DNA from: a virus
Lineage: Duplodnaviria; Heunggongvirae; Uroviricota; Caudoviricetes
Length of the DNA: 37,700 nt
Virus record (IMG/VR): IMGVR_UViG_2541047736_000004
Span: 1 to 37,700 of that record
Reading direction: 5' to 3' (one strand)
Shown here: positions 1 to 22,316 of the stretch, piece by piece
Layout: every line of letters begins with the position of its first letter
Position numbering within the stretch: the stretch's first letter is position 1
Made by a program: the position numbers and the translations under genes
Notes under the pieces: model-generated
Seen by the model: the letters and a program-made list of their open reading frames with translations, nothing else
Told to the model about the DNA's origin: nothing
Databases searched by the model: none

Positions 1-1248
1 ATGGCACTGAATATTCCATTCAGAAATGCGTACTATCGTTTTGCATCCAGTTACTCATTTCTCTTTTTTATTTCCTGGTCGCTGTGGTGGTCGTTATACG
101 CTATTTGGCTGAAAGGACATCTAGGGTTGACAGGGACGGAATTAGGTACACTTTATTCGGTCAACCAGTTTACCAGCATTCTATTTATGATGTTCTACGG
201 CATCGTTCAGGATAAACTCGGTCTGAAGAAACCGCTCATCTGGTGTATGAGTTTCATCCTGGTCTTGACCGGACCGTTTATGATTTACGTTTATGAACCG
301 TTACTGCAAAGCAATTTTTCTGTAGGTCTAATTCTGGGGGCGCTCTTTTTTGGCCTGGGGTATCTGGCGGGATGCGGTTTGCTTGACAGCTTCACCGAAA
401 AAATGGCGCGAAATTTTCATTTCGAATATGGAACAGCGCGCGCCTGGGGATCTTTTGGCTATGCTATTGGCGCGTTCTTTGCCGGCATATTTTTTAGTAT
501 CAGTCCCCATATCAACTTCTGGTTGGTCTCGCTATTTGGCGCTGTATTTATGATGATCAACATGTGTTTTAAAGATAAGGATCACCAGTGCGTAGCGGCG
601 GATGCGGGAGGGGTAAAAAAAGAGGATTTTATCGCAGTTTTCAAGGATCGAAACTTCTGGGTTTTCGTCATATTTATTGTGGGGACGTGGTCTTTCTATA
701 ACATTTTTGATCAACAACTTTTTCCTGTCTTTTATGCAGGTTTATTCGAATCACACGATGTAGGAACGCGCCTGTATGGTTATCTCAACTCATTCCAGGT
801 GGTACTCGAAGCGCTATGCATGGCGATTATTCCTTTCTTTGTGAATCGGGTAGGGCCAAAAAATGCATTACTTATCGGTGTTGTGATTATGGCGTTGCGT
901 ATCCTTTCCTGCGCGCTGTTCGTTAACCCCTGGATTATTTCATTAGTGAAGCTGTTACATGCTATTGAGGTTCCACTTTGTGTCATATCCGTCTTCAAAT
1001 ACAGCGTGGCAAATTTTGATAAGCGCCTGTCGTCGACGATCTTTCTGATTGGTTTTCAAATTGCCAGTTCGCTTGGGATTGTGCTGCTTTCAACGCCGAC
1101 TGGGATACTCTTTGACCACGCAGGCTACCAGACAGTTTTCTTCGCAATTTCGGGTATTGTCTGCCTGATGTTGCTATTTGGCATTTTCTTCTTGAGTAAA
1201 AAACGCGAGCAAATAGTTATGGAAACGCCTGTACCTTCAGCAATATAG
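1..1248 (+). CDS. cscB: Sucrose:H+ symporter, LacY-family MFS permease (415 aa)
   Basis: Full-length ORF with 12-TM MFS profile; sequence recognised from memory as E. coli CscB (N-terminus MALNIPFRNAYYRFASSYSF). Host gene flanking the prophage. Confidence 0.85.
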   Translation: MALNIPFRNAYYRFASSYSFLFFISWSLWWSLYAIWLKGHLGLTGTELGTLYSVNQFTSILFMMFYGIVQDKLGLKKPLIWCMSFILVLTGPFMIYVYEPLLQSNFSVGLILGALFFGLGYLAGCGLLDSFTEKMARNFHFEYGTARAWGSFGYAIGAFFAGIFFSISPHINFWLVSLFGAVFMMINMCFKDKDHQCVAADAGGVKKEDFIAVFKDRNFWVFVIFIVGTWSFYNIFDQQLFPVFYAGLFESHDVGTRLYGYLNSFQVVLEALCMAIIPFFVNRVGPKNALLIGVVIMALRILSCALFVNPWIISLVKLLHAIEVPLCVISVFKYSVANFDKRLSSTIFLIGFQIASSLGIVLLSTPTGILFDHAGYQTVFFAISGIVCLMLLFGIFFLSKKREQIVMETPVPSAI

Positions 1249-5016: not shown

Positions 5017-6081
5017 TTAAGTTGTTTCCAGACTTCCTTTGGTAAAAGCTTGTATCAGTCTGTTTGCTGCTGCTTTCTGCGCTGCCACATTGGCAATAAC
5101 CGATAGTTTTTCCTGGCTGGCTTTCGTGCAGATCCCCGCCCAGTTATCCATCAGAAAAAAATCCTCTCTTTCTGCAGAGCTGGTAGTTGCACAGAGTTTT
5201 TCGATCATAGAAGTTATTTCTGCGATGGAATGATTAACCATCATCTGTTGAACCGCAAAACCGAAAGCGTTAATCATTACTCCATGGAACTGAATATAAT
5301 CGCGCTTGTACGTAGCGTGGTGTACACCATGTCGGATTGAGTCAATCTGAGTTAGTGTAATCCATGCCTCCCAGACAGATTCTATATATCCCATTTCAAG
5401 TTGTTGATTGCCGTTCCTAGCAAACTTTGACGTTGCATCAGTGAGTGCCTTGAAACTCACCCACATATTACTTTTTAATGGCACTACGTTGTGTTCAAAA
5501 TCGGTTATATCGGCAAATACAGTATGTTGGGTCAGGAAGGATATCATTCCCTGAGCAATATCATCCCGGCCGTTATACGCCATATTGATGGTCGCTGATG
5601 GCTTAGAAACGTTGTTATTTATGTCCGAAAAGAACTGCTGCCGGGTTTTTAGCGGCAGATTCATTGTAAGCATCATGGGAACCATGAGCGTTGATGGGGA
5701 ACTTCGGCAAAATATCTCAATGCCAGCTGCACGATGTTGGCCATCAAAAAGTTTTATTTCGGCGTCGAGGGGAATTCTGGCTATACCAACATTTGTGTTG
5801 CCAAACGGTACAAATTCTATATTCGAATCACAGTTACCTACGAGAGGGGGAATGATAAAAGGCTCATTTCTTGAGTCTGCGTTAGTGAGATAATTTAAAA
5901 ATTTTCGTACTCGATTTGGATTAATTTCTCGCTGAGAGCGTTCCAGTGTATGGCCGTAATTATCTGAAGCGAGGAAACGAGCCAGCGATCTTCCTGGTAT
6001 GGTAAGGAAGAGTGTAACAGTACCACCCTGTACACCTTGCGATGCCGGAAATTCGAATGAATGATTACCAACCTGACTCAT
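5017..6081 (-). CDS. DGQHR-domain protein (DndB/DpdB-like, 354 aa)
   Basis: Exact DGQHR motif in KLFDGQHRAAGIEIF; size fits DndB-like proteins; start codon overlaps the stop of the upstream small ORF. Confidence 0.7.
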   Translation of the reverse strand: MSQVGNHSFEFPASQGVQGGTVTLFLTIPGRSLARFLASDNYGHTLERSQREINPNRVRKFLNYLTNADSRNEPFIIPPLVGNCDSNIEFVPFGNTNVGIARIPLDAEIKLFDGQHRAAGIEIFCRSSPSTLMVPMMLTMNLPLKTRQQFFSDINNNVSKPSATINMAYNGRDDIAQGMISFLTQHTVFADITDFEHNVVPLKSNMWVSFKALTDATSKFARNGNQQLEMGYIESVWEAWITLTQIDSIRHGVHHATYKRDYIQFHGVMINAFGFAVQQMMVNHSIAEITSMIEKLCATTSSAEREDFFLMDNWAGICTKASQEKLSVIANVAAQKAAANRLIQAFTKGSLETT

Positions 6082-6236
6082 ATATCCTCCTGTTTATTAT
6101 TTATCTTCTCAGCCAGCCGCTGTGCTTTCAGTGGATTTCTGATAACAGAAAGGCCGGGAAATACCCAGCCTCGCTTTGTAATGGAGTAGACGAAAGTGAT
6201 CGCGCCTACCCGGATATTATCGTGAGGATGCGTCAT
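6078..6236 (-). CDS. Small lambda orf60a-like protein (52 aa), translationally coupled to exo and the DGQHR gene
   Basis: ORF not in the supplied track (under 60 aa); translated by hand as [52 protein letters not shown]; ATG overlaps the exo stop (ATGA) and its stop overlaps the DGQHR start. Confidence 0.45.
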
Positions 6237-6913
6237 CGCCATTGCTCCCCAAATACAAAACCAATTTCAGCCAGTGCCTCGTCCATTTTTTCGATGAACT
6301 CCGGCACCATCTCGTCAAAACTCGCCATGTACTTTTCATCCCGCTCAACCACGACATAATGCAGTCCTTCACGCTTCATACGCGGGTCATAGTTGGCAAA
6401 GTACCAGGCATCTTTTCGTGTCACCCACATGCTGTACTGCACCTGGGCCATGTAAGCCGACTTTATGGCCTCGAAACCACCGAGCCGGAACTTCATGAAA
6501 TCCCGGGAGGTAAACGGGCATTTCAGCTCAAGGCCATTGCCGTTACTGCATAAACCATCGGGAGAGCAGGCGGTGCGCATACTTTCGTCGCGATAGATGA
6601 TCGGGGATTCAGTAACATTCACGCCGGAAGTGAATTCAAACAGGGTTCTGGCGTCGTTCTCGTACTGTTTTCCCCAGGCCAGCGCCTTAGCATTAACTTC
6701 CGGAGCCACACCGGTGCAAACCTCAGCCAGCAGGGTGTGGAAGTAGGACATTTTCATGTCAGGCCACTTCTTTCCTGAGCGGGGCTTTGCTATCACGTTG
6801 TGAACTTCTGAAGCGGTGATGACGCCGAGCCGTAATTTGTGCCATGCATCATCCCCCTGTTCGACAGCTCTCACGTCGATCCCGGTACGCTGCAGGATAA
6901 TGTCCGGTGTCAT
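6233..6913 (-). CDS. exo: Lambda exonuclease (Red-alpha), 226 aa
   Basis: Near-identical to lambda Exo as recalled; overlaps bet stop. Confidence 0.95.
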
Positions 6914-7695
6914 GCTGCCACCTTCTGCTCAGTGGCTTTCTGTTTCAGGAATCCAAGAGCTTTCACTGCTTCGGCCTGTGTCAGTTCTGACGATGCGCGA
7001 ATGTCGCGGCGAAATATCTGGGAACAGAGCGGCAATAAGTCGTCATCCCATGTTTTATCCAGGGCGATCAGCAGAGTGTTAATCTCCTGCATGGTTTCAT
7101 CGTTAACCGGAGTGATGTCGCGTTCCGGCTGACGTTCTGCAGTGTATGCAGTATTTTCGACAATGCGCTCGGCTTCATCCTTGTCATAGATACCAGCAAA
7201 TCCGAAGGCCAGACGGGCACACTGAATCATGGCTTTATGCCGTAACATCCGTTTGGGATGCGACTGCCACGGCCCCGTGATTTCTCTGCCTTCGCGGGTT
7301 TTGAATGGTTCGCGGCGGCATTCATCCATCCACTCGGTGACGCAGATGGGATGATTGCGGTCCTTGCGGTAAATCCGGCATGTACAGGATTCATTGTCCT
7401 GCTCAAAGTCCATACCATCAAACTGCTGGTTTTCATTGATGATGCGGGACCAGCCATCAACGCCCACCACCGGAACAATGCCGTTCTGCTTATCAGGGAA
7501 GGCGTAAATTTCTTTCGTCCACGGATTAAGGCCGTACTGGTTGGCGACGATCAACAATGCGATGAACTGCGCATCGCTGGCATCACCTTTAAATGCCGTC
7601 TGGCGAAGAGTGGTGATCAGTTCCTGTGGGTCGACAGAATCCATGCCGACACGTTCAGCCAGCTTCCCAGCCAGCGTTGCGAGTGCTGTACTCAT
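6910..7695 (-). CDS. bet: Lambda Bet (Red-beta) single-strand annealing protein, 261 aa
   Basis: Near-identical to lambda Bet as recalled. Confidence 0.95.
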
Positions 7696-7700
7696 CCGTT

Positions 7701-7997
7701 TTATACCTCTGAATCAATATCAAACTGGTGGTGAGCAATGATTTCAACCATGTACCGGATGTGTTCTGCCATGCGCTCCTGAAACTCAACATCGTCATCA
7801 AACGCACGGGTAATGGCTTTTTTGCTGGCCCCGTGGCGTTGCAAATGATCGATGCATAGCGATTCAAACAGGTGCTGGGGCAGGCCTTTTTCCATGTCGT
7901 CTGCCAGTTCTGCCTCTTTCTCTTCACGGGCGATCTGCTGGTAGTGACGTGCCCAGCTCTGAGCCTCAAGACGATCCTGAATGTAATAAGCGTTCAT
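7701..7997 (-). CDS. gam: Gam (RecBCD inhibitor), 98-aa short form
   Basis: Matches lambda GamS ([21 protein letters not shown]...). Confidence 0.9.
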
Positions 7998-8072
7998 GGC
8001 TGAACTCCTGAAAATGGCTGTGAAAATATCGCCCGCGAAATGCCAGGCTGATTAGGAAAACAGGAAAGGGGA

Positions 8073-8483
8073 TTAGTGATTCAGGCCGTTACCGCGTCCG
8101 TCGAGAAAAACTTCCACGAGCAAATCACGGGTATAAGTGCGCTCGATGCCGCGATGCAGATATAGCCGTCCGCGTAAATTAGCTGATGCAGTCCAGGTAC
8201 CATCTTTGTGTTTGACCAGCATTCCTGGCATGACCGCACCTCGATTAACGGTCTGCGTTCCGTAATGTTGATGAACCATAAAAACTCCTGCCCGTAAGCT
8301 GGGCTGCTGAACATATAGAGACTTCTGCGCGTATTCAGGCGGTGGATGGCCGCCGGTTGTCATAACTAAGTCGCCTCGTTGAAGCGACTGAGGTATGAAG
8401 TGTTGAGTTGATTTCAGCTGGTCACACCGACGTTCACGCGTCCGCTTCACCCCTCGCACTCCCCGGAGCCTGCTGAAATTCAA
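8073..8483 (-). CDS. Candidate N-like antiterminator, first gene of the pL operon (non-ATG start; alternative GTG at 8450)
   Basis: First ORF downstream of the pL-like promoter; Arg-rich N-terminal segment KRTRERR resembles the lambda N ARM (TRRRERR); otherwise no recognisable similarity. Confidence 0.3.
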
Positions 8484-8544
8484 GCTGCGGATCTAAGCGG
8501 TCATCGCAACGGTGAATCAGGTGATTGCCGTATCGTTGTGTTGT

Positions 8545-8625
8545 TGCGATGAATTCATTTAAAACTATAGTTGTTTTATCGTCAACAACAAAAGTTGTTT
8601 TATTGGTTGTTTTAGATATAACTGG
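8545..8625 (-). promoter_or_regulatory. pL-like promoter with OL operators
   Basis: Minus-strand GTTGTTGACGATAAAACAACTATAGTTTTAA is paralogous to the pR region; repeated GGTTGTT/AACAACC half-sites. Confidence 0.55.
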
Positions 8626-8717
8626 TTGTATTTAAGATGGATTTATTTTGTGACTTGCATCGCATAGCGATAACTGAAGCGAGGTCGTGGTGGTTTTTTG
8701 AACGGTTTGTGTGATGA

Positions 8718-8748
8718 GGGGAGGCAAAAGAAAACCCGGCACTGGGGC
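8718..8748 (-). terminator. Left half of the immunity-operon intrinsic terminator, split by IS4
   Basis: With IS4 and one duplication copy removed, the minus strand reads AAACCCGGC-cccagt-GCCGGGTTT followed by TCTTTTGCC; IS4 sits in the loop. Confidence 0.55.
8737..8748. repeat. IS4 target-site duplication, left copy (CGGCACTGGGGC)
   Basis: 12-bp direct repeat directly flanking both IS4 ends. Confidence 0.85.
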
Positions 8749-10174
8749 TAATGCCAGTCAGTTAAGCAACTGACTGGCTCTTTTTCGGGGCTGTGGGGTA
8801 TTTCCAGGGCCTCTCCTTTACCACTCTCGGGAAGGCCCTTTCCCTTCTTGTCGGTAATTTCACAAGTTGTCCCATACTTGCAAGATCGCGCATCAGCTCC
8901 GGTATACGTCCCGGTGAAGCGCCCTGCAATGTCATCAGCATTCTCATCACCATTCCGCATGATTCTGAGAAACTCAGTTGATTCGGCCAGTAACCTTTCA
9001 GATGTTCCGCCATTTTAATCATCTGATATCTCACCAGATTATAAGCCAGTAAGACACCCCACAGCTCTTGCTCCACAAGCTCCGGCTTTTTACTTCTCAG
9101 CGTCAGCCTGCTCCGTTGCATCGTCTGTTTTATCTCCCTGTATCCCAGTTCGATTTCCCAGCGATGACTGTACAGATCCCCCATTTCTCCTCCGGGGAAG
9201 CGCATGGCGTCCGTCATCGACGTCAGCAGATGGCAGACTTTTCCTTTGCGCGTCACGGTCAGCAGGCGGGCAGTCACTTCATTTCCCAGTCCCGGCCACT
9301 TTTTTCGTGCCTGCGGGCTGGTTTTCAGCTTCACCAGATGATCGCCTTTACCCAGTTTTCTGATCTCTTCATATTGCGCTCCCTTTCTGAGAGGTATCAT
9401 CCAGTGGCGGTGTTCTCCCGCCAGGCTCCAGGCATTTAACAGTCCCAGTGAGTAATAACCTTTATCCATTAACGTCAGAGTGTTATCGCCGGTTTGTTCT
9501 ATAAGTTGCTCAGCAAGCTCATTTTCGCTGTTCTTCATCGTGCCGAAGGCTGCAGCCGTCAGCAGATGGCTGGTCAGTTCCATCTGGCAGACCATTTTGA
9601 CCTGCGGGTAGAGCGCCGGGTTCCCGGCATGTGTCTGGCGGGGGAAGGCTGCATCGTTCTCTGGTGTATCCGGTGTGCGCCAGAACACACCATCGATGGC
9701 CAGCAGGGTCAGGCCGCACCAGTGCGGATGCGGCGTGGCGTTATGCCAGAGCTGCGCTGTTTTCGTGAACACGCGGCGGACAGCCTCACTTCCCAGGCGC
9801 TGGCGGGCCTGAATAACGGCACTGGGGGCAACGAAGGGGCGATTGCCCGGCAGCATGATGTCCAGGCGATTCACAATCTGGTGAAGAGGTTCTTTACGCT
9901 CAAGCGCCATGCCAACAATACACCAGACCATCATTTCGAGGGGAAGACGGCGCTTGCGTAGCGTTACAGTACCTGATTCGGCAAGGCAACGAGAGATGAG
10001 TTCGGGGTCGAGGTAATCCCCCAGAGAAGTCAGTGGGTTACGCAGAGAATCGTAACGGGATACCAGATCAAGAGCCTGTCCAATGTGCATAAAAAAATCC
10101 GGAAACAAGTGAGCGTTTCCGGATTCTTACACAGCCACTGGATCGGTCAACTGATCCTTAACTGATCGGCATTA
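8749..10174 (-). mobile_element. Insertion sequence IS4, complete (1426 bp)
   Basis: Terminal inverted repeats TAATGCCAGTCAG... and ...CTGATCGGCATTA; encodes the IS4 transposase; flanked by a 12-bp duplication. Confidence 0.95.
8762..10090 (-). CDS. insG: IS4 transposase (442 aa from MHIGQALDL start)
   Basis: Recognised as the IS4 transposase (DDE family); the supplied ORF carries a 6-codon upstream extension. Confidence 0.9.
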
Positions 10175-10186
10175 CGGCACTGGGGC
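10175..10186. repeat. IS4 target-site duplication, right copy (CGGCACTGGGGC)
   Basis: Identical to 8737-8748. Confidence 0.85.
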
Positions 10187-10193
10187 CGGGTTT
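10175..10193 (-). terminator. Right half of the IS4-split terminator
   Basis: Carries the GCCGGGTTT stem strand that pairs with AAACCCGGC at 8732-8740. Confidence 0.5.
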
Positions 10194-10268
10194 AGATGGA
10201 TAAGAAAGGGTAATAGGGAATGAAAAATCGCTTTGCGTAATGCAAGGTGGCGAGCAGTTTCTTAAGCA

Positions 10269-10709
10269 CTAAAGAAAAAAGTACATTGATAGCTTATAAA
10301 GACCTGTTCCTGCAGCGATGATTGCTGGAACACCAAGCAATACCGCAAGCTTTGCGTCTGAAATCTTTCTATCGACAGCATCGATGGAGGGTTTTTTGGC
10401 TAGTGAATCTTTTATTGAATCGAGTCGCTCCAGAACAGCGATCATGTTTCTGTCGATAGATTTGACATCTGTCTTAAGCTCATCAACGTCACGTCGGATA
10501 TAGGACACATCAGACTCAAGCTTTGCAACTTTCGATTCAAGCACATTATTACTCCCAGAGCCACCGCTACCACTTGATTGTAGCATAGGTACATTACCGC
10601 CAGACATACCAGCTGATTGAGAAAATGCTGCAGTGTGCAAAGATGATGATCTTGCCGCTTGTTCAAGCTTTTCAGTTAGGTTTGGAGCTTCGTAATAACC
10701 GTGTTTCAT
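10269..10709 (-). CDS. Hypothetical tail-anchored membrane protein with coiled coil (146 aa), rex-position cassette gene 2
   Basis: Gly/Ser-rich linker, heptad-like coiled-coil segment, single C-terminal TM helix (LAVLLGVPAIIAAGTGLYKLSMYFFL); follows the 89-aa ORF after a 8-bp gap, co-oriented with cI. Confidence 0.55.
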   Translation of the reverse strand: MKHGYYEAPNLTEKLEQAARSSSLHTAAFSQSAGMSGGNVPMLQSSGSGGSGSNNVLESKVAKLESDVSYIRRDVDELKTDVKSIDRNMIAVLERLDSIKDSLAKKPSIDAVDRKISDAKLAVLLGVPAIIAAGTGLYKLSMYFFL

Positions 10710-10717
10710 TGTTAATA

Positions 10718-10987
10718 TTATGACTTATTGGTTTTAGCTCTATCATGCTGATCGCGAATAAAGTCAGCGAGTTTAAGCATTAAATCTTCCGTCATGCGAA
10801 TTGTTGCAATGTTGTACTTTACGTTTTCAGTGTCATTACTACCATCAGCGCCCCATTCTGTAACATGCTGAAAGAAAGATATGGAGCCTAAGCGATCGTC
10901 ATCTTCCCCAAAAGATGAATATCCAAATGCATCAGCATATGCATCTACACAGTTATTTGATTTTTTTATAAGTTTTTTATCACTCAT
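10718..10987 (-). CDS. Hypothetical small acidic protein (89 aa), rex-position cassette gene 1
   Basis: ORF immediately downstream of cI on the same strand; no recognised domain. Confidence 0.5.
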   Translation of the reverse strand: MSDKKLIKKSNNCVDAYADAFGYSSFGEDDDRLGSISFFQHVTEWGADGSNDTENVKYNIATIRMTEDLMLKLADFIRDQHDRAKTNKS

Positions 10988-11066
10988 TTTTGCCTTTCCC
11001 GTAATGTTATTTTTATAAAGAATTCTTTCAGCGCATTACCCAAAAGCCTCATCAGCACGCAGCTGA

Positions 11067-11756
11067 TTATCCGTGTTTCCTATACGTCTGCGGCATACTG
11101 CCAATAACCTTCCCGAAAATGAACACCCGGTTCATCTCGTCTTTCTCGATCGGGTCCCACGGTGAGTAGCTCTTGTTATCAGAGATAACCAGTAGCTTAT
11201 CTTTCATCATTTGCAGGCGCTTTACATGGGCTGTGTCGTCGTACAGAAACGCATAGATACCATCACCGTCGAAAGATTTAACCGTGATATCAACGAACAG
11301 CAGATCACCTGGTTCGATCGTTCCTGACATGCTGTCACCACGCACGTTAATGATGCGGATATTTTCCGCCTTCCTGCCATCGAACATGTGACGAGCATCG
11401 TCAAACGAGTACTCAACCGAGCGTAGAACTTCTACAAACTCACGGTTGATTACACCCGGCCCGGCACTGACTTCTATATCAAGAACGTCAATTTTGAAGT
11501 ATTTGGAATGGCTGACAGTTGATTGTATTGGTTGCACTGTACTGTCTGACATATTTCCAACGCCAGAAGATAACCATTCTGCGCGCACACCCAAAGCGTT
11601 CGCGATCTCCACGATTTTAGTTGTTTGGTTAGCTTTCCCTGTTTCGATTTTCTGAATAGCAGCCTGGCTAACCCCGACCAAATCCCCAAGCGCCTTTTGT
11701 GTAAGGCCTCGCGCTAATCTGGCTTCTTTAAGTCTTTCTGAGAGTGTTGTTTTCAT
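11067..11756 (-). CDS. CI-type prophage repressor, HTH-XRE plus S24 LexA-like peptidase (229 aa from MKTTLSERL)
   Basis: N-terminal HTH (LTQKALGDLVGVSQAAIQKIE), Ala-Gly cleavage site (SAGPG), Ser and Lys catalytic motifs (GDSMSGT, HVKRL); the internal ATG at 11756 is preferred because the upstream extension would cover the OR palindrome. Confidence 0.85.
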   Translation of the reverse strand: MKTTLSERLKEARLARGLTQKALGDLVGVSQAAIQKIETGKANQTTKIVEIANALGVRAEWLSSGVGNMSDSTVQPIQSTVSHSKYFKIDVLDIEVSAGPGVINREFVEVLRSVEYSFDDARHMFDGRKAENIRIINVRGDSMSGTIEPGDLLFVDITVKSFDGDGIYAFLYDDTAHVKRLQMMKDKLLVISDNKSYSPWDPIEKDEMNRVFIFGKVIGSMPQTYRKHG

Positions 11757-11860
11757 AGACCAAATGTACAACCAAGGTTTTATTTCATCAAACGAAAATG
11801 GTTGTTGACTAAAAACAACCATAGTTTTAATCTTGATTCGGATTAACCACGGAGGTTGTT
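11757..11860. promoter_or_regulatory. OR operator / pR-pRM divergent promoter region
   Basis: Palindrome TGGTTGTTGACTAAAAACAACCA at 11799-11821 with embedded -35 TTGACT; candidate -10 in TAGTTTTAAT upstream of cro. Confidence 0.6.
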
Positions 11861-12091
11861 ATGAACCCAGCAATCAAAACAGCGATCAATATCGTTGGTT
11901 CACAAAAGAAACTAGGCGATGCCTGCGAAGTTTCACAGCAGGCCGTCTATAAGTGGCTTCACAACAAAGCAAAGGTATCCCCTGAACATGTCGGCAGCAT
12001 TGTTACGGCTACTGGTGGAGTTGTGAAGGCATACCAGATTCGCCCGGATCTTCCGAAGTTGTTTCCACACACCGAAAAGAACGCAGCTTAA
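11861..12091 (+). CDS. Cro-like / YdaS-family HTH regulator (76 aa)
   Basis: Small HTH protein divergent from cI; resembles Rac-prophage YdaS as recalled. Confidence 0.7.
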   Translation: MNPAIKTAINIVGSQKKLGDACEVSQQAVYKWLHNKAKVSPEHVGSIVTATGGVVKAYQIRPDLPKLFPHTEKNAA

Positions 12092-12160
12092 ATTTCCATT
12101 TCACGCTCTTTAACAATAAGCAATCAACTTAACAGTCAATTCAAACTAAAGGAGTCAATT

Positions 12161-12700
12161 ATGCAACCACTTACATACCAACAGACTAGCGGATTTATTC
12201 CGACTGCGGTGATAAATCGTTCTCAAACAAAACAAGCTCCAGGCCACGAAAAAATCCGTGATGCCGTCCGCGCCTGGTCGGCTGTAGATAATCAGGATGT
12301 CGTTGCCGCACTCATTGTGAATGAGTATCGGGAGCAGGGCGACGGCACCATCGATTTCCCTGATGATGTCAGCCGTGCACGCCAGAAGCTGTTCCGCTTC
12401 CTCGATAACAAATTCGATTCTGAAAAATACCGAAATAACGTGCGTGAACTGACCCCGGCAATTCTGGCGGTACTACCGCTGGAATATCGCGGTTACCTGG
12501 TTGAGCAGGATAGCTTCATGACTCGGTTGGCTGAAATGGAAAAGGAACTCAGTGAGGCAAAACAGGCTGTCATTCTCAACGCACCACGCCACCAGAAACT
12601 GAAGGAAATTAGTGAAGGTATTGTGTCGATGTTTCGTGTGGACCCAGATCTGGCTGGTCCATTGATGGCGATGGTTACTACCATGCTGGGGGCGATATGA
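12161..12700 (+). CDS. YdaT-like protein in the cII position (179 aa)
   Basis: LTPAILAVLPLEYRGYL matches the Rac YdaT segment IPAILAILPRELR as recalled. Confidence 0.55.
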   Translation: MQPLTYQQTSGFIPTAVINRSQTKQAPGHEKIRDAVRAWSAVDNQDVVAALIVNEYREQGDGTIDFPDDVSRARQKLFRFLDNKFDSEKYRNNVRELTPAILAVLPLEYRGYLVEQDSFMTRLAEMEKELSEAKQAVILNAPRHQKLKEISEGIVSMFRVDPDLAGPLMAMVTTMLGAI

Positions 12701-12786
12701 CAGGTTCAGAAATGGCGAAAGCCGGTCTGCGCGAACAGAACCGACTTTCAGGTGCAAATCGTAACACACTCATTGCGGGAGGAATT

Positions 12787-13692
12787 ATGGCAAACACTGC
12801 TGAGATATTCAATTTTCCAGTGCCGGATGAGGCACAAAAGGAGCAGCGCGTGGCAGATCTCGATGATGGTTATACGCGCATTGCAAATGAGTTGCTGGAA
12901 GCTGTGATGCTGGCCGGATTAACACAGCACCAGCTTCTGGTCTTTCTGGCTGTCATGCGCAAAACATATGGCTTTAATAAAAAACAGGATTGGGTTAGCA
13001 ACGAGCAACTTTCCGAATTAACCGGGATATTGCCGCACAAGTGTTCTGCTGCAAAAAGTGTTCTGGTAAAGCGTGGGATTTTAATTCAGAGCGGGCGGAA
13101 TATCGGCATCAATAATGTGGTCAGTGAATGGTCAACATTACCCGAATCGGGTAAGAAAAATAAAGTTTACCTGAAAGAGGTAAATTTACCTAAATCAGGT
13201 AAAGGCGTTTACCCGAATCAGGTAAACACAAAAGACAAACTAACAAAAGACAATATAAAACCTTTTTCGTCCGAGAATTCTGGCGAATCCTCTGACCAGC
13301 CAGAAAACGATCTTCCTGTGGTGAAACCGGATGCTGCAATTCAGAGCGGCTGCAAGTGGGGGACAGCAGAAGACCTGACCGCCGCAGAGTGGATGTTTGA
13401 CATGGTGAAGACCATCGCGCCATCAGCCAGAAAACCGAATTTTGCAGGGTGGGCTAACGATATCCGCCTGATGCGTGAACGTGACGGACGTAACCACCGC
13501 GATATGTGTGTACTGTTCCGCTGGGCATGCCAGGACAACTTCTGGTCCGGTAACGTGCTGAGTCCGGCCAAACTCCGCGACAAGTGGACCCAGCTCGAAA
13601 TCAACCGTAACAAGCAACAGGCAGGCATGACAGCCGGCAAACCAAAACTCGACCTGACGAACACTGACTGGATTTACGGGGTGGATTTATGA
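12787..13692 (+). CDS. O: Replication initiator O (301 aa), lambda-like C-terminal half with a divergent N-terminal DNA-binding half
   Basis: C-terminal ~140 aa near-identical to lambda O as recalled; GGAGG RBS before the ATG at 12787; iterons lie inside the gene. Confidence 0.85.
   Translation: MANTAEIFNFPVPDEAQKEQRVADLDDGYTRIANELLEAVMLAGLTQHQLLVFLAVMRKTYGFNKKQDWVSNEQLSELTGILPHKCSAAKSVLVKRGILIQSGRNIGINNVVSEWSTLPESGKKNKVYLKEVNLPKSGKGVYPNQVNTKDKLTKDNIKPFSSENSGESSDQPENDLPVVKPDAAIQSGCKWGTAEDLTAAEWMFDMVKTIAPSARKPNFAGWANDIRLMRERDGRNHRDMCVLFRWACQDNFWSGNVLSPAKLRDKWTQLEINRNKQQAGMTAGKPKLDLTNTDWIYGVDL
13138..13225. repeat. Origin of replication: four 17-bp iterons (TTACC-N7-GGTAA) inside O, followed by an AT-rich stretch
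   Basis: Iterons at 13138-13154, 13167-13183, 13186-13202 and 13209-13225; AT-rich DNA at 13226-13262. Confidence 0.75.
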
Positions 13693-14411
13693 AAAACATC
13701 GCCGCACAGATGGTTAACTTTGACCGTGAGCAGATGCGCCGGATCGCCAACAATATGCCGGAACAGTACGACGAAAAGCCGCAGGTACAGCAGGTAGCGC
13801 AGATCATCAACGGTGTGTTCAGCCAGTTACTGGCAACTTTCCCTGCGAGCCTGGCTAACCGGGATCAGAACGAACTGAACGAAATCCGCCGTCAGTGGGT
13901 TCTGGCTTTCCGGGAAAACGGGATCACCACAATGGAACAGGTTAACGCAGGAATGCGCGTAGCCCGTCGGCAGAATCGACCATTCCTGCCATCACCCGGG
14001 CAGTTTGTTGCCTGGTGCCGGGAAGAAGCATCCGTTACCGCCGGGCTGCCAAACGCCAGCGAGCTGGTTGATATGGTTTACGAGTATTGCCGGAAGCGTG
14101 GCCTGTATCCGGACGCAGAGTCTTATCCATGGAAATCAAACGCGCACTACTGGTTGGTTACCAACCTGTACCAGAACATGCGGGCCAATGCGCTGACTGA
14201 CGCGGAATTACGGCGTAAAGCTGCCGATGAGCTGACCTGTATGACCGCGCGAATTAACCGTGGTGAGGCGATACCTGAACCAGTAAAACAACTTCCTGTC
14301 ATGGGCGGTAGGCCTCTAAATCGTGCACAGGCTCTGGCGAAGATCGCAGAAATCAAAGCTAAGTTTGGGCTGAAAGGGGGAAAAGCATTATATAAAAAGA
14401 TTTCGAAATAA
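13689..14411 (+). CDS. P: Replication protein P (DnaB helicase loader), 240 aa
   Basis: Near-identical to lambda P as recalled; start overlaps O stop (ATGA). Confidence 0.95.
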   Translation: MKNIAAQMVNFDREQMRRIANNMPEQYDEKPQVQQVAQIINGVFSQLLATFPASLANRDQNELNEIRRQWVLAFRENGITTMEQVNAGMRVARRQNRPFLPSPGQFVAWCREEASVTAGLPNASELVDMVYEYCRKRGLYPDAESYPWKSNAHYWLVTNLYQNMRANALTDAELRRKAADELTCMTARINRGEAIPEPVKQLPVMGGRPLNRAQALAKIAEIKAKFGLKGGKALYKKISK

Positions 14412-14563: not shown

Positions 14564-15229
14564 ATGAAAATCATACAGTTACAAATGGTATTTTTTTACG
14601 ATTCATCAACGACTGTCGATTTCGATGGAATGTCGTATTTTATTAGGCAAACTTTTAAAAAGAAGGCAGGTATTGAATTAACAAACAATATGATGTTGGG
14701 CGTTTTACCTATGGATACCCCACCAGAGATTCCTCGTCTCCAATTGTTTTCTATAGATAATAAATTTAGAGTTCAATGCTCACTGCAGAGATGTGATTTG
14801 TTTTTTGAACGTATGGATTCTGAGCAAGAGGTAGACTTACATTTGTTTCAAGAAGTTTTCGATAGTGTGGTTGATATCCATAAAGAACTCAATAAGGATA
14901 TTATCAGAATAGGCTTGGTGGCCGTTAAGGCGGAATTAAACAACAACCCAAACAAAGAGATTGTTAAAAACTATCTTAGTAACAACATGCAGAATGATAG
15001 CGAAATAATTGAAGATATTAATTTAATGTATAATAAAAAATTCGAGTTTGAGCAGTCCATATTTAATTGTCATTTGTCGATTATGTCAGGATATGATATT
15101 GTCAGAGAACAACCAATGCTAGTGAAACAGATCGATGTGAATACAATCGAGAGTTTTATATTTAAAGATAAATATACCGCAGAAAAAACAAAAAAAGCCT
15201 TTTTAAGTAAAGTGAATGAAATTCAGTAA
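14564..15229 (+). CDS. Hypothetical soluble protein (221 aa), AT-rich island gene 1
   Basis: ORF in strongly AT-rich DNA; no recognised motif. Confidence 0.55.
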   Translation: MKIIQLQMVFFYDSSTTVDFDGMSYFIRQTFKKKAGIELTNNMMLGVLPMDTPPEIPRLQLFSIDNKFRVQCSLQRCDLFFERMDSEQEVDLHLFQEVFDSVVDIHKELNKDIIRIGLVAVKAELNNNPNKEIVKNYLSNNMQNDSEIIEDINLMYNKKFEFEQSIFNCHLSIMSGYDIVREQPMLVKQIDVNTIESFIFKDKYTAEKTKKAFLSKVNEIQ

Positions 15230-15243
15230 TGTGAGGTGGCTGA

Positions 15244-16203
15244 ATGAATAAGGATGATAATAAAAAGGATATAAAAAGAACTGCAAAAAATAATGCTATA
15301 GTCAACGATGACATGGCAAAAAGAACTGCGCATCATTCACTTTATTCTAATTCACAAGTATCGAATAGTACATCTACGTATACAGGAGGGGTACAAAAAA
15401 TTAGTAATTTGCAGATAGATAATAAAACTGCAACAGCTTCAAATAAAGAGCGGGAAAGTATATCCATCAAAGACGCGGCACCACAAAAATTAATAAAAAC
15501 CTCTCTTTTTGTTAATGAAAAAGAAATGTTGCATGAAGCTATAAAATACAGTTCAAAAGCAACTGTGCCGGTGATGGATAATACTGTCTCTAATGCCATT
15601 TTATCTAATTACTTTGTTAATAATAATTCTGAATCTACAATTTCTTTTAATAAAGAGAATGTAAAAAAATATACAAAAAGTGATATTGATAACATCCTCT
15701 GGAAAAATACCAATGATCAACTAACCAATTTTTCGCAAGAGTTGAATAAGAGCAAAAAGAATATTAATGATACTAAAAGAAAAATAGGTAAGGTAATGTC
15801 TTCATTATCTCAGCAAACTGCAAAGATTGAGCAATTTGATGCAACATTATCAAATGCTGAAAAAGATATACATGAGAAAGTTAAAAGCTTTGAATCGGAA
15901 GTAATTACAGCAAGGAACTCAATGCTGGGTGTCATTGCTTTATTTGCTTCTTTCTTTACTTTCATTTCTATTTCAGTAAACGTATTTTCTCGCGATATGT
16001 CTTTAAGCATGTCAATCTCAGTTTTGTTAGTGATATGGTCGTGCTTAATTAGCTTTATCTTTGTTTTTATGGCAGGAATTAGCAAGGGAGGAGCTTTTTT
16101 TACAAGCTCATCATTTATTAAGCATGCCATTTTTATGGTTGTGCTTTTTATTTCATCTTTCGCACTCCCTAAAGTTATTTTTAATATCTTTGCAATTAGC
16201 TGA
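15244..16203 (+). CDS. Hypothetical membrane protein (319 aa), three C-terminal TM helices, AT-rich island gene 2
   Basis: Asn/Lys/Ser-rich coiled-coil-like N-terminal region; three hydrophobic helices in residues ~230-315; starts 14 bp after gene 1. Confidence 0.55.
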   Translation: MNKDDNKKDIKRTAKNNAIVNDDMAKRTAHHSLYSNSQVSNSTSTYTGGVQKISNLQIDNKTATASNKERESISIKDAAPQKLIKTSLFVNEKEMLHEAIKYSSKATVPVMDNTVSNAILSNYFVNNNSESTISFNKENVKKYTKSDIDNILWKNTNDQLTNFSQELNKSKKNINDTKRKIGKVMSSLSQQTAKIEQFDATLSNAEKDIHEKVKSFESEVITARNSMLGVIALFASFFTFISISVNVFSRDMSLSMSISVLLVIWSCLISFIFVFMAGISKGGAFFTSSSFIKHAIFMVVLFISSFALPKVIFNIFAIS

Positions 16204-19787: not shown

Positions 19788-19872
19788 AGTCAGAGATAAC
19801 AATCAACTAATACTGTTTTGTTGATTTTTGCTTGTAATTGGCGTTCTGGTCTGATTTTTGTGGAGTAAGTTG

Positions 19873-20256
19873 ATGCGTGATATTCAGATGGTTCTTGAGC
19901 GTTGGGGAGCGTGGGCGGCTAATAATCATGAAGATGTGACCTGGTCGTCCATTGCCGCCGGTTTTAAGGGATTAATTACTTCAAAAGTAAAATCTCGCCC
20001 GCAATGTTGTGACGATGACGCGATGATCATTTGCGGGTGCATGGCCCGTCTGAAAAAGAACAACAGTGATTTGCACGATTTATTAGTAGATTATTATGTA
20101 GTCGGTATGACATTCATGTCACTGGCAGGTAAGCATTGCTGCTCTGATGGTTATATCGGGAAAAGGTTACAGAAGGCTGAGGGTATAATTGAAGGGATGT
20201 TAATGGCATTAGATATCCGGTTAGAGATGGATATCGTTGTTAATAACTCTAATTAA
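19873..20256 (+). CDS. quuD: Late-gene antiterminator Q, phage 82 / DLP12 QuuD type (127 aa from [10 protein letters not shown])
   Basis: Matches DLP12 QuuD as recalled; the supplied ORF starts 5 codons upstream. Confidence 0.85.
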
Positions 20257-20444: not shown

Positions 20445-21527
20445 TTAGAACTGGTAAACCATACCTACAGCAACGATATCATCGGTAGCAACGCCAGATG
20501 CTTTCGTGAAATCGCTCTTATCAATCAGGTTGATTTTGTAATCAACAAAAGTGGACATATTTTTGTTGAAGTAATAGGTTGCACCTACATCAATATATTC
20601 AACCAGGTCCTGATCACCCCACGCACCCAAGTCTTTTCCTTTAGATTGCAGGTAAGCAACGGACGGACGCAGACCGAAGTCGAACTGATATTGTGCAACT
20701 ACTTCGAAGTTTTGTGCTTTGTTGGCAATATGGTTATTACCAAAAACAGTCATGTTCTGGGTTTCAGAATAGGTGGTAGCCAGATAGATGTTGTTCGCAT
20801 CATATTTCAGACCAGCTGCCCATACTTCAGCATTTTGACCAGATGCATTCAGGCTGTTGTTACCGTAGATAACCTGATTATTAGTGCGGTCAGATTTAGC
20901 ATAGGTTGCACCTACACCGAATCCTTCATACTCATAAGTAGTGGAGAAACCGAAACCATCACCATTAGCTTCAGTTACGTCAGTGCGGTCATTTTTACCC
21001 TGATACTGAGCAGCAAAGTTCAGACCATCAACCAGACCAAAGAAGTCGTTGTTACGATAAGTTGCAACACCAGTGGTGCGACCAGTCATGAACACATCTG
21101 TTTGGGTCCAGGTATCGCCACCGAATTCTGGCAGAACGTCAGTCCACGCACCGATGTCGTATGCTACACCGTAGTTACGGCCGTAATCGATTGAGCCGTA
21201 GTCACCGAATTTCAGGCCTGCAAATGCAAGACGGGTTTTGTCTTTGGAGGAACCTTGAGATTCAGCGCGGTTGCCTTTGAATTCATATTCCCACTGACCG
21301 AAACCAGTCAGTTGATCGTTGATTTGGGTTTCACCTTTGAAGCCAAGACGGGCATAAGTAGTATCACCATCATCTGCATCATTAGAGGAGAAGTAGTGCT
21401 TAGCATTAACTTTCCCGTACAGATCCAGCTTGTTACTGTCTTTATTATAAATTTCAGCTGCCTGAGCAGACATCGCCATCAGTACTGATGCAGCTACAGC
21501 AGAAATTGCCACTGTTAATTTTTTCAT
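20445..21527 (-). CDS. nmpC: Outer-membrane porin of the OmpC/OmpF family (360 aa), prophage moron
   Basis: Signal peptide plus typical porin beta-barrel sequence ending in F; recognised as NmpC of DLP12-type prophages; antisense to the late operon. Confidence 0.9.
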
Positions 21528-22100: not shown

Positions 22101-22316
22101 ATGAAATCCATGGATAAGTTAACAACGGGTGTCGCCTATGGCACCTCAGCAGGTAGTGCCGGGTACTGGTTTTTACAGCTGCTAGATAAAGTCACGCCCT
22201 CACAGTGGGCGGCAATTGGAGTGCTGGGTAGCCTGGTATTTGGCCTGCTGACGTACCTGACAAACCTTTATTTCAAGATTAAAGAAGATAAGCGTAAGGC
22301 TGCGAGAGGTGAATAA
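22101..22316 (+). CDS. essD: Holin, phage 21 S-type class II (71 aa)
   Basis: Two TM segments; matches DLP12 EssD / S21 as recalled. Confidence 0.9.

Follow-up and report, generated by a model that had tools for sequence, protein, structure and literature searches.

RESULTS

The orf89-orf146 cassette

The DNA analysed here, the window, is a stretch of 37,700 nucleotides (positions 1 to 37,700 of the IMG/VR virus record IMGVR_UViG_2541047736_000004) and is a lambda-type prophage. Directly behind its cI-type repressor gene, the first gene of the immunity operon, lie two small genes, orf89 and orf146, which a sequence-only reading had proposed to be a lysogen-expressed exclusion system. Both open reading frames (ORFs) are present as that reading placed them, 8 nt apart on the minus strand and co-oriented with a repressor combining helix-turn-helix (HTH) and S24 peptidase domains (Pfam HTH_3, 6.5e-13; Peptidase_S24, 1.5e-18). 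The identical repressor protein is named in RefSeq as an S24 family peptidase (WP_000858975.1, with its start at 11756). Coordinates are collected in Table 1.

Both are genuine coding genes under purifying selection. Compared with an 81%-identical allele carried by O26/O111-type strains (L004), the ratio of non-synonymous to synonymous substitution rates (dN/dS) is 0.076 for orf89 and 0.24 for orf146, the latter divided between a coiled coil at 0.07 and an N-terminal 55 residues at 0.48. Divergence between the two alleles is concentrated in the body of the cassette; cI, the right operator region (OR), the left operator and promoter (OL/pL) and the end coding for the transmembrane (TM) helix are mostly 90-100% identical. 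The segment is indeed AT-rich, as the letters had suggested, with 40.7% GC against 46.7% in cI and 49.6% in the window (orf89 36.3%, orf146 42.6%), and the GC content of third codon positions is 0.29 and 0.33 in the two genes against 0.50 in cI. By this deviant base composition, and by its presence or absence on near-identical backbones, the cassette is a moron. A megablast search of the cassette against sequenced phages returned no match, and tblastn alone found the phage UPF_BP1.

The orf89 product is acidic and soluble, as had been supposed (89 aa, pI 4.98, no hydrophobic segment). The Gly/Ser linker, coiled coil and single C-terminal TM helix read from the orf146 sequence fit both the AlphaFold model, which has helices at residues 9-30, 54-104 and 109-145, and the hydropathy profile, in which the best 19-residue window (119-137, Kyte-Doolittle 1.80) lies in the sole hydrophobic stretch. 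The protein has no signal peptide, more basic residues on the N-terminal side of the TM helix, and about 5-9 residues after the hydrophobic stretch; since the signal peptide is absent and the basic residues lie N-terminal, the bulk of orf146 is probably cytoplasmic. Both proteins belong to PHROGs of 'unknown function' (orf146 to phrog_3556 at 4e-54, orf89 to phrog 4231). When solved structures were searched by sequence, orf146 gave coiled-coil noise only, to Lpp and to a P22-type tail needle (gp26-like), at E ~0.01.

Within the orf146 family the coiled coil opens with a nearly invariant Met, at which several database gene calls begin. The Gly-run encodes Shine-Dalgarno-like GGAG/GGAGG, and GGAGG stands 4-10 nt upstream of the conserved Met in 10 of 15 loci, where 6.6 would be expected with uniform Gly codons or 3.3 with E. 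coli codon usage, the sequences being interrelated. In the window, codons 49-56 of orf146 (10542-10565, minus strand) hold GGAG, 7 nt and then GTG, which is V56 (nt 10542-10544). This is a hint of an internal start giving a short orf146 isoform, and only a hint because the 15 loci are related sequences.

Position in the repressor operon

The cassette lies between OL and OR, in the place that rexAB occupies in lambda, as two operator clusters flank it. In a pattern search of the window, all exact matches to ACAACN4GTTKT fall within these two clusters, at 8561-8601 (OL/pL) and 11768-11859 (OR), and with at most one mismatch there are 14 matches against 5.0 +/- 2.8 expected by chance. Read from the sequence, the OR palindromes are spaced 23-24 bp centre-to-centre, and the pL block shares matches of 19-23 nt with the cI/cro intergenic region, among them a 19-nt stretch that is 95% identical and inverted. 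Putative promoter hexamers are present at pRM and pR in OR and, as -35 TTGACG and -10 TTAAAT, at the leftward early promoter. An IS-free relative (L001), whose cassette is 100% identical to that of the window, has the leftward order cI, orf89, orf146, hairpin plus T-tract, operator repeats with TTGACG-17-TTAAAT, and KilR-like gene.

In the spacer between cI and orf89 a terminator scan and RNA folding found no terminator (z = -0.95, U-tract absent), and a promoter scan gave none that was convincing; a cassette-specific promoter and terminator are not evident, and the cargo appears to use the signals of the cI operon. The native terminator is a hairpin plus T-tract, CCCGGCcccagtGCCGGGTTTTCTTTT, which is intact in IS-free relatives. 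When the slot is aligned in its empty form (L021), with the cassette (L001) and with a gene for a DUF3800 protein (L022), the terminator and everything leftward of it are common to all three, so that the cargo lies upstream of the operon terminator and the terminator belongs to the prophage backbone. A cassette placed between the cI stop codon and this backbone terminator would be transcribed with the repressor in the lysogen, and its co-expression there is well supported by inference.

The sequence-only reading had the two genes end at an intrinsic terminator, which is true of the ancestral arrangement only. Here the native terminator has been split by the insertion sequence IS4, which is not part of the cassette and now separates it from its terminator and OL/pL. 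The target duplication is 12 bp, GCCCCAGTGCCG, at 8737-8748 and 10175-10186, and none of the complete E. coli genomes searched has this IS4 junction. By eye, IS4 itself holds a hairpin with a T-tract at 10091-10123, about 60 nt further on, which the terminator scan did not flag and which read-through from the cassette would meet. A second IS4 copy, in the aroA-ycaL spacer of SMS-3-5 (L057 1791-1925), also lies in a CGGCA..TGCCG hairpin followed by a T-tract; as both copies sit in a hairpin plus T-tract, this suggests that IS4 targets terminator-like hairpins.

The repressor allele is present in 2210 of 5426 complete E. coli genomes. In most of the 2210 the slot is empty, leaving about 130 nt from cI to the terminator (as in L021, whose cI protein is identical), and the cassette is found in 211 E. 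coli genomes (198 full-length matches) as two main alleles. Alternative cargos, counted on backbones with the same cI protein or a near-identical allele, include the DUF3800 protein, a 313-aa protein that matches the PADLOC defence candidate PDC-S42 at 3e-86 (L023) and a BamE/Cor-like lipoprotein (L024). The interval from cI to the terminator is thus a cargo hot spot, and the cI-N interval has been described as a mosaic moron hot spot in which bstA is transcribed from the cI promoter (PMC7067206). About 35 nt immediately after the cI stop are common to the cassette and DUF3800 versions and absent from the empty one.

Partner exchange and distribution of the family

In every phage-type context examined a partner gene precedes the gene for the membrane protein, and it is not always orf89. 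Partners of 136-160 aa make up a separate divergent family (A5; phrog_5893), which hhalign found to be unrelated to the orf89 family. What the partner co-varies with is the N-terminal peptide, and not the coiled-coil/TM module, of the membrane protein. Thus orf89 goes with N-termini of the 'YYE.PNL...SSSLH' type, and with its 'YYE.PNL' N-terminus it is found on at least three different C-terminal modules, the E. coli type, another in UPF_BP1 and an XhlA-like one in Leclercia; Serratia and Raoultella combine yet other modules with orf89 homologs and N-termini that are more divergent. Partners of 153 and 160 aa (71% identical) accompany the N-terminus 'MVRAIDI' on two C-terminal types, and partners of 147 and 148 aa (49% identical) accompany 'VQLRPNQD', again on two C-terminal types. 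For two membrane proteins that share a C-terminal type, by comparison, the partners (one of them the 147-aa protein) have only 25% identity. This co-variation is most simply explained if the soluble protein docks on the N-terminal peptide, and on this pattern orf89 likely binds the N-terminus of orf146.

Conservation of the last 90 residues of orf146 extends across Enterobacterales (108 clusters), and a profile search of 1.84 billion representatives recovered 1246 clusters at E <= 1e-3, mostly of 90-190 aa; a hydrophobic segment at the C-terminal end was seen in 104 of 127 small relatives. In phage-type members the variable N-terminus is followed by a poly-Gly run, the motif M(L)E.RVA.LE.DV..I and a TM helix. 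Most orf146 copies are intact, truncated variants being rare. Pfam does not cover the family, PF10779 (XhlA) being matched weakly by 4 of 71 representatives, all under the gathering score. Among environmental relatives from Gammaproteobacteria (form ME.RIARLESDVAHIRSD...ARGFGWL), most have no Gly-run and an adjacent upstream gene on the same strand is usually missing; they were set apart as a separate subfamily and not counted as evidence on the cassette. The ME.RVA.LE.DV..I motif also recurs up to 10 times in four metagenomic proteins of 800-2365 aa (P0134, P0144, P0145 and P0159).

A partner and an orf146 homolog stand directly after different cI alleles in Klebsiella, Citrobacter, Salmonella (with a 1-nt gap), Enterobacter and Phaseolibacter; at the Citrobacter loci a Cor-like gene follows the pair. 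In the P22-like UPF_BP1 and in P22-like genomes of Serratia and Leclercia the pair comes directly after mnt, overlapping by 4-8 nt, and before gene 16; the P22 order sieA-orf59a-mnt makes this the sieA slot (PMC10883804). Other relatives lie in tail-gene clusters on the opposite strand (Erwinia, Citrobacter, Raoultella), and simple scans around relatives of the tail region showed neither a clear promoter nor a clear terminator. Mannheimia lambda-like phages have a 161-aa XhlA-domain gene with one TM listed next to cI and read as a haemolysin (PMC4553209). Just after the cassette in Klebsiella (L006 5411-5614), Citrobacter (L009 5886-6110) and Salmonella (L017 4405-4611) there is an opposite-strand ORF of 67-80 aa; it lies between the cassette and the early-left genes, has no Pfam match, and no counterpart of it was seen in the window.

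Other features of the window

To the left of OL/pL, no gene for an N-like antiterminator separates pL from the KilR-like gene, either in the window or in its IS-free relatives. This prompted the idea that the 280-nt leader following pL (8280-8560, minus strand) might hold a put-like antitermination RNA, which was rejected, as the fold is not significant (z = -0.77) and the leader has no Rfam match; an Rfam scan of 7900-12300 gave no credible RNA. The early-left operon encodes, upstream of exo, a DndB/DGQHR-domain protein (5017-6081, minus strand; Pfam 3.8e-46, PADLOC DndB 4e-37) with no other dnd genes nearby. The window begins inside a gene for a LacY-type permease (1-1248, plus strand); neither of the two adjacent ORFs has an integrase domain, and relatives carry int/xis at that end of the prophage.

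To the right, directly after P in the ren/nin position, is an AT-rich gene pair (14564-15229 and 15244-16203, plus strand; 31% GC; 221 and 319 aa). Annotated as encoding two hypothetical proteins, it matches nothing in Pfam or PADLOC and is full-length in 21 complete E. coli genomes only; it is a candidate for another moron. As in DLP12-like prophages, Q and the lysis genes are separated by a gene for an OmpC/NmpC-type porin (20445-21527, minus strand); the lysis region begins near 22300.

Table 1. Features of the repressor operon and of the flanking parts of the window.
Feature	Position (nt)	Strand	Remarks
exo, bet, gam	6233-7997	minus	lambda-like
KilR-like gene	8073-8279	minus	
OL/pL	8555-8640	minus	operator palindromes 8561-8574 and 8585-8598, plus ACAACC half-sites
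Distal half of split terminator	8725-8748	minus	second copy of target duplication, GG, T-tract
IS4	8749-10174	minus	1426 bp; transposase 8762-10108; Pfam Nterm_IS4, DDE_Tnp_1
3' untranslated tail of cassette	10175-10268	minus	ends in 5' arm and loop of terminator, 10175-10190
orf146	10269-10709	minus	predicted tail-anchored membrane protein, 146 aa
orf146, TM helix	10287-10355		residues ~119-141
orf146, coiled coil	10398-10550		residues 54-104; long helix in AlphaFold model
orf146, Gly/Ser hinge	10551-10619		residues 31-53; disordered in AlphaFold model
orf146, N-terminal peptide	10620-10709		residues 1-30; putatively partner-specific
orf89	10718-10987	minus	small acidic soluble protein; three beta-strands, then alpha-helix
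cI-orf89 spacer	10988-11066	minus	79 nt; Shine-Dalgarno-like AAGG 5 nt before orf89 ATG
cI-type repressor gene	11067-11756	minus	HTH_3 and Peptidase_S24; first gene of immunity operon
OR region	11757-11860	.	divergent pRM/pR; palindromes 11768-11781, 11815-11828, 11846-11859; weaker 11792-11805
YdaS/Cro-like gene	11861-12091	plus	
YdaT-like gene, then O and P	12161-14411	plus	
Q	19858-20256		to the right of O/P; porin gene and late genes beyond

DISCUSSION

Relation to known systems

The cassette is of a known kind, a repressor-linked prophage moron that is probably protective, and we consider it very likely that it is a moron of the cI operon. Lambda RexAB, the model of lysogen-expressed abortive infection, which is transcribed from pRM and excludes T4 rII and other phages, shares its slot between cI and OL/pL, co-oriented with cI and upstream of the immunity-operon terminator, and shares the plan of two genes, the soluble product encoded first and the other an inner-membrane protein, as predicted for orf146. 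However, RexB is a four-TM protein that forms an ion channel activated by the soluble component, and RexA has about 279 residues, whereas the membrane protein of the cassette has one C-terminal TM helix and a coiled coil, and its soluble protein has 89 aa. That neither protein resembles RexA or RexB, as the sequence-only reading remarked, holds in searches of Pfam (E <= 0.1) and PADLOC (E <= 1).

P22 SieA is likewise a prophage-encoded inner-membrane protein, as orf146 is predicted to be, and homologs of the cassette pair occupy the sieA slot in three P22-like genomes, the window itself having lambda-type immunity. SieA, though, consists of one protein of 162-164 aa with three TM helices, which acts unaided to block DNA injection (PMC10883804), in contrast to two genes, one TM helix, a mostly cytoplasmic mass and a partner gene that is always upstream in the contexts examined. 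BstA of prophage BTP1, a prophage defence protein encoded directly downstream of cI and using the cI promoter (PMC7067206), shares the same hot spot; it is a single large soluble DNA-binding abortive-infection protein, and the cassette has no similarity to it in sequence or architecture.

XhlA (PF10779), of the Bacillus PBSX lysis cassette, is of similar build, a small protein in which a cytoplasmic coiled coil at the N-terminal end precedes a C-terminal TM helix. Unlike XhlA, orf146 has an extra variable N-terminus, a poly-Gly hinge and a dedicated upstream partner, and its cassette adjoins repressor genes rather than a holin and endolysin. Against the PF10779 gathering threshold of 34.7 bits orf146 has no match and a relative (P0103) reaches 25.2 bits. 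This resemblance falls short of strong homology to a lysis function, the finding that the sequence-only reading had named as contrary to its proposal. If orf146 does specify two products it would recall P22/lambda SieB-Esc and the holin/antiholin dual-start genes, unlike which its second product is a statistical hint from related sequences, with GTG as the internal codon here. In sequence and architecture, then, the cassette belongs with neither RexAB nor SieA on any count, and with XhlA it shares only the coiled-coil/TM architecture. In the literature searched, outside which one relevant survey lay, there is no earlier description of these protein families, of the tail-anchored architecture or of the modularity of peptide and partner.

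Proposed function

Of the proposal of a lysogen-expressed exclusion system, the position and the expression are strongly supported by inference, and the evidence for exclusion is circumstantial. We propose that orf89 and orf146 were acquired horizontally and entered the operon after the cI stop codon and ahead of the backbone terminator, beyond which lies OL/pL, and would be transcribed with the repressor in the lysogen. Their products would form a complex at the cytoplasmic face of the inner membrane, where orf146, tail-anchored by its C-terminal TM helix and oligomerising via its coiled coil, would present the N-terminal peptide on a flexible Gly/Ser hinge for soluble orf89 to dock on. We hold such a membrane-tethered complex of the two products to be probable. 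The complex may protect the lysogen against other phages, with orf89 as the specificity or sensor part and the coiled-coil/TM module as an effector that would permeabilise or otherwise disturb the inner membrane, so that the logic would be Rex-like and the architecture holin/XhlA-like.

An anti-phage function seems to us slightly better supported than its opposite; it is favoured because of the slot, shared with a PADLOC defence candidate and a Cor-like lipoprotein, its equivalence to the sieA slot, the Cor-like neighbours and the modular exchange, which resembles that of sensors and effectors. The mechanism is more doubtful. A Rex-like, abortive and membrane-permeabilising action is our best guess and ranks above a block at entry, and is nevertheless rather unlikely in itself. 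Overall the best explanation, which we hold tentatively and at somewhat less than even confidence, is a repressor-operon moron whose products form a membrane complex protecting the lysogen against other phages.

Several observations weigh against this explanation. Neither protein has anything significant in Pfam, NCBIfam or PADLOC, where PADLOC-DB 2.0 returned for orf146 coiled-coil noise only (GajA 0.006, LmuB 0.02) and for orf89 nothing, and the fold of orf89 has no confident match. Searching the literature by RefSeq accession, by locus tag or for anti-phage proteins with a tail anchor gave nothing on the family, one E. coli prophage-defence survey lying outside the search. A single TM helix with a coiled coil that is probably trimer-like, to judge from the Lpp and gp26-like matches, is not an obvious pore, and orf146 has no Shine-Dalgarno sequence of its own. 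The co-variation argument draws on about a dozen loci, and a slot shared with defence candidates is guilt by association. In Morganella and Xenorhabdus the relatives share a strand with the tail genes and adjoin the tape-measure gene, and may be expressed late rather than in lysogens.

Superinfection could instead be excluded at DNA entry, without cell death, by a complex that interferes with the injection apparatus, or with an inner-membrane host factor on which incoming phages rely, in the manner of SieA or HK97 gp15. HK97 gp15 is located within a tail-gene cluster, and some relatives of the pair are morons in such clusters; orf146, moreover, is predicted to be anchored in the inner membrane, and in three P22-like genomes the pair fills exactly the sieA slot, between mnt and gene 16 (PMC10883804). 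Against this, orf89 and nearly all of orf146 are predicted to be cytoplasmic, and with only about 5-9 residues reaching the periplasm it is difficult to see how periplasmic or ejected proteins would be contacted. SieA, with three TM helices, needs no partner, and a variable soluble partner better fits intracellular sensing, so that we regard an entry block as improbable. No more probable is a role in lysogenic conversion or maintenance other than defence, with the two genes forming a toxin-antitoxin-like pair, in which orf89 would neutralise a membrane-toxic orf146 and the prophage would be stabilised, or modulating host membrane or ribosome physiology in the manner of ElaB/YqjD. Many morons do serve no defence, the order and charge of the genes (small, acidic orf89 of pI 4.98 first, membrane protein orf146 second, 8 nt apart) resemble those of type II toxin-antitoxin systems, and ElaB and YqjD are tail-anchored proteins of coiled-coil architecture like that of orf146. 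Yet orf89 has no recognisable DNA-binding antitoxin domain, family or fold match, and no toxin-antitoxin or DUF883 family was matched in Pfam. Partners from at least two unrelated families swapped on one effector would be unusual for an addiction module, and the scarcity of truncated orf146 variants among mostly intact copies also weighs against this reading.

Two further readings follow from the XhlA resemblance. An accessory of phage lysis or late development, acting XhlA-like with a holin, would account for the relatives that are named 'hemolysin XhlA' in NCBI and UniRef and share the first half of the coiled coil, for their weak score on PF10779 (1.9e-5, 25.2 bits), for the weak match of orf146 to PHROG 'hemolysin' families and for the relatives that are co-oriented in late operons. 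It is very unlikely here, as orf146 has no PF10779 match (the 4 of 71 representatives that do being below the gathering score) and as the cassette is in the immunity operon, tied to repressor transcription and about 11 kb upstream of the lysis genes; lysogens would be harmed by constitutive synthesis of a lysis protein. Less likely still is a cell-associated haemolysin or virulence factor. The Pfam description of PF10779 concerns a large secreted haemolysin of Xenorhabdus, unrelated to proteins of about 100-150 aa, and orf146 is without a signal peptide and predicted to be cytoplasmic in nearly its whole length; this reading has on its side the annotation carried in databases and the proposal made for the Mannheimia XhlA-domain gene next to cI (PMC4553209).

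Returning to a protective membrane complex, a broader and speculative extension, which we think unlikely as it stands, is that the cassette represents an undescribed, widespread class of prophage immune module with a conserved tail-anchored coiled-coil effector, a hypervariable N-terminal 'socket' peptide on a poly-Gly hinge, interchangeable unrelated soluble sensors recruited by that peptide and perhaps regulation by a short isoform, its parts shuffling independently among lambdoid rex, P22 sieA and tail-moron sites. If that were true, the shuffled sensors and effectors would amount to plug-and-play specificity against different phages.

Significance

Lysogen-expressed anti-phage genes, rexAB and bstA among them, classically reside between cI and pL, and one common E. 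coli immunity backbone has at least five alternative cargos in this interval. The orf146 family, with more than 1,000 sequence clusters, is described in no curated library, and some of its records are mislabelled 'haemolysin XhlA'. If its function is not defence, the cassette is still a conserved product of the repressor operon. If it is defence, its compact two-gene architecture with visibly exchangeable sensor and effector parts would be a good model for the swapping of specificity modules, and would explain repressor-adjacent genes in prophages of Escherichia, Salmonella, Klebsiella, Citrobacter, Enterobacter, Serratia and probably Mannheimia.

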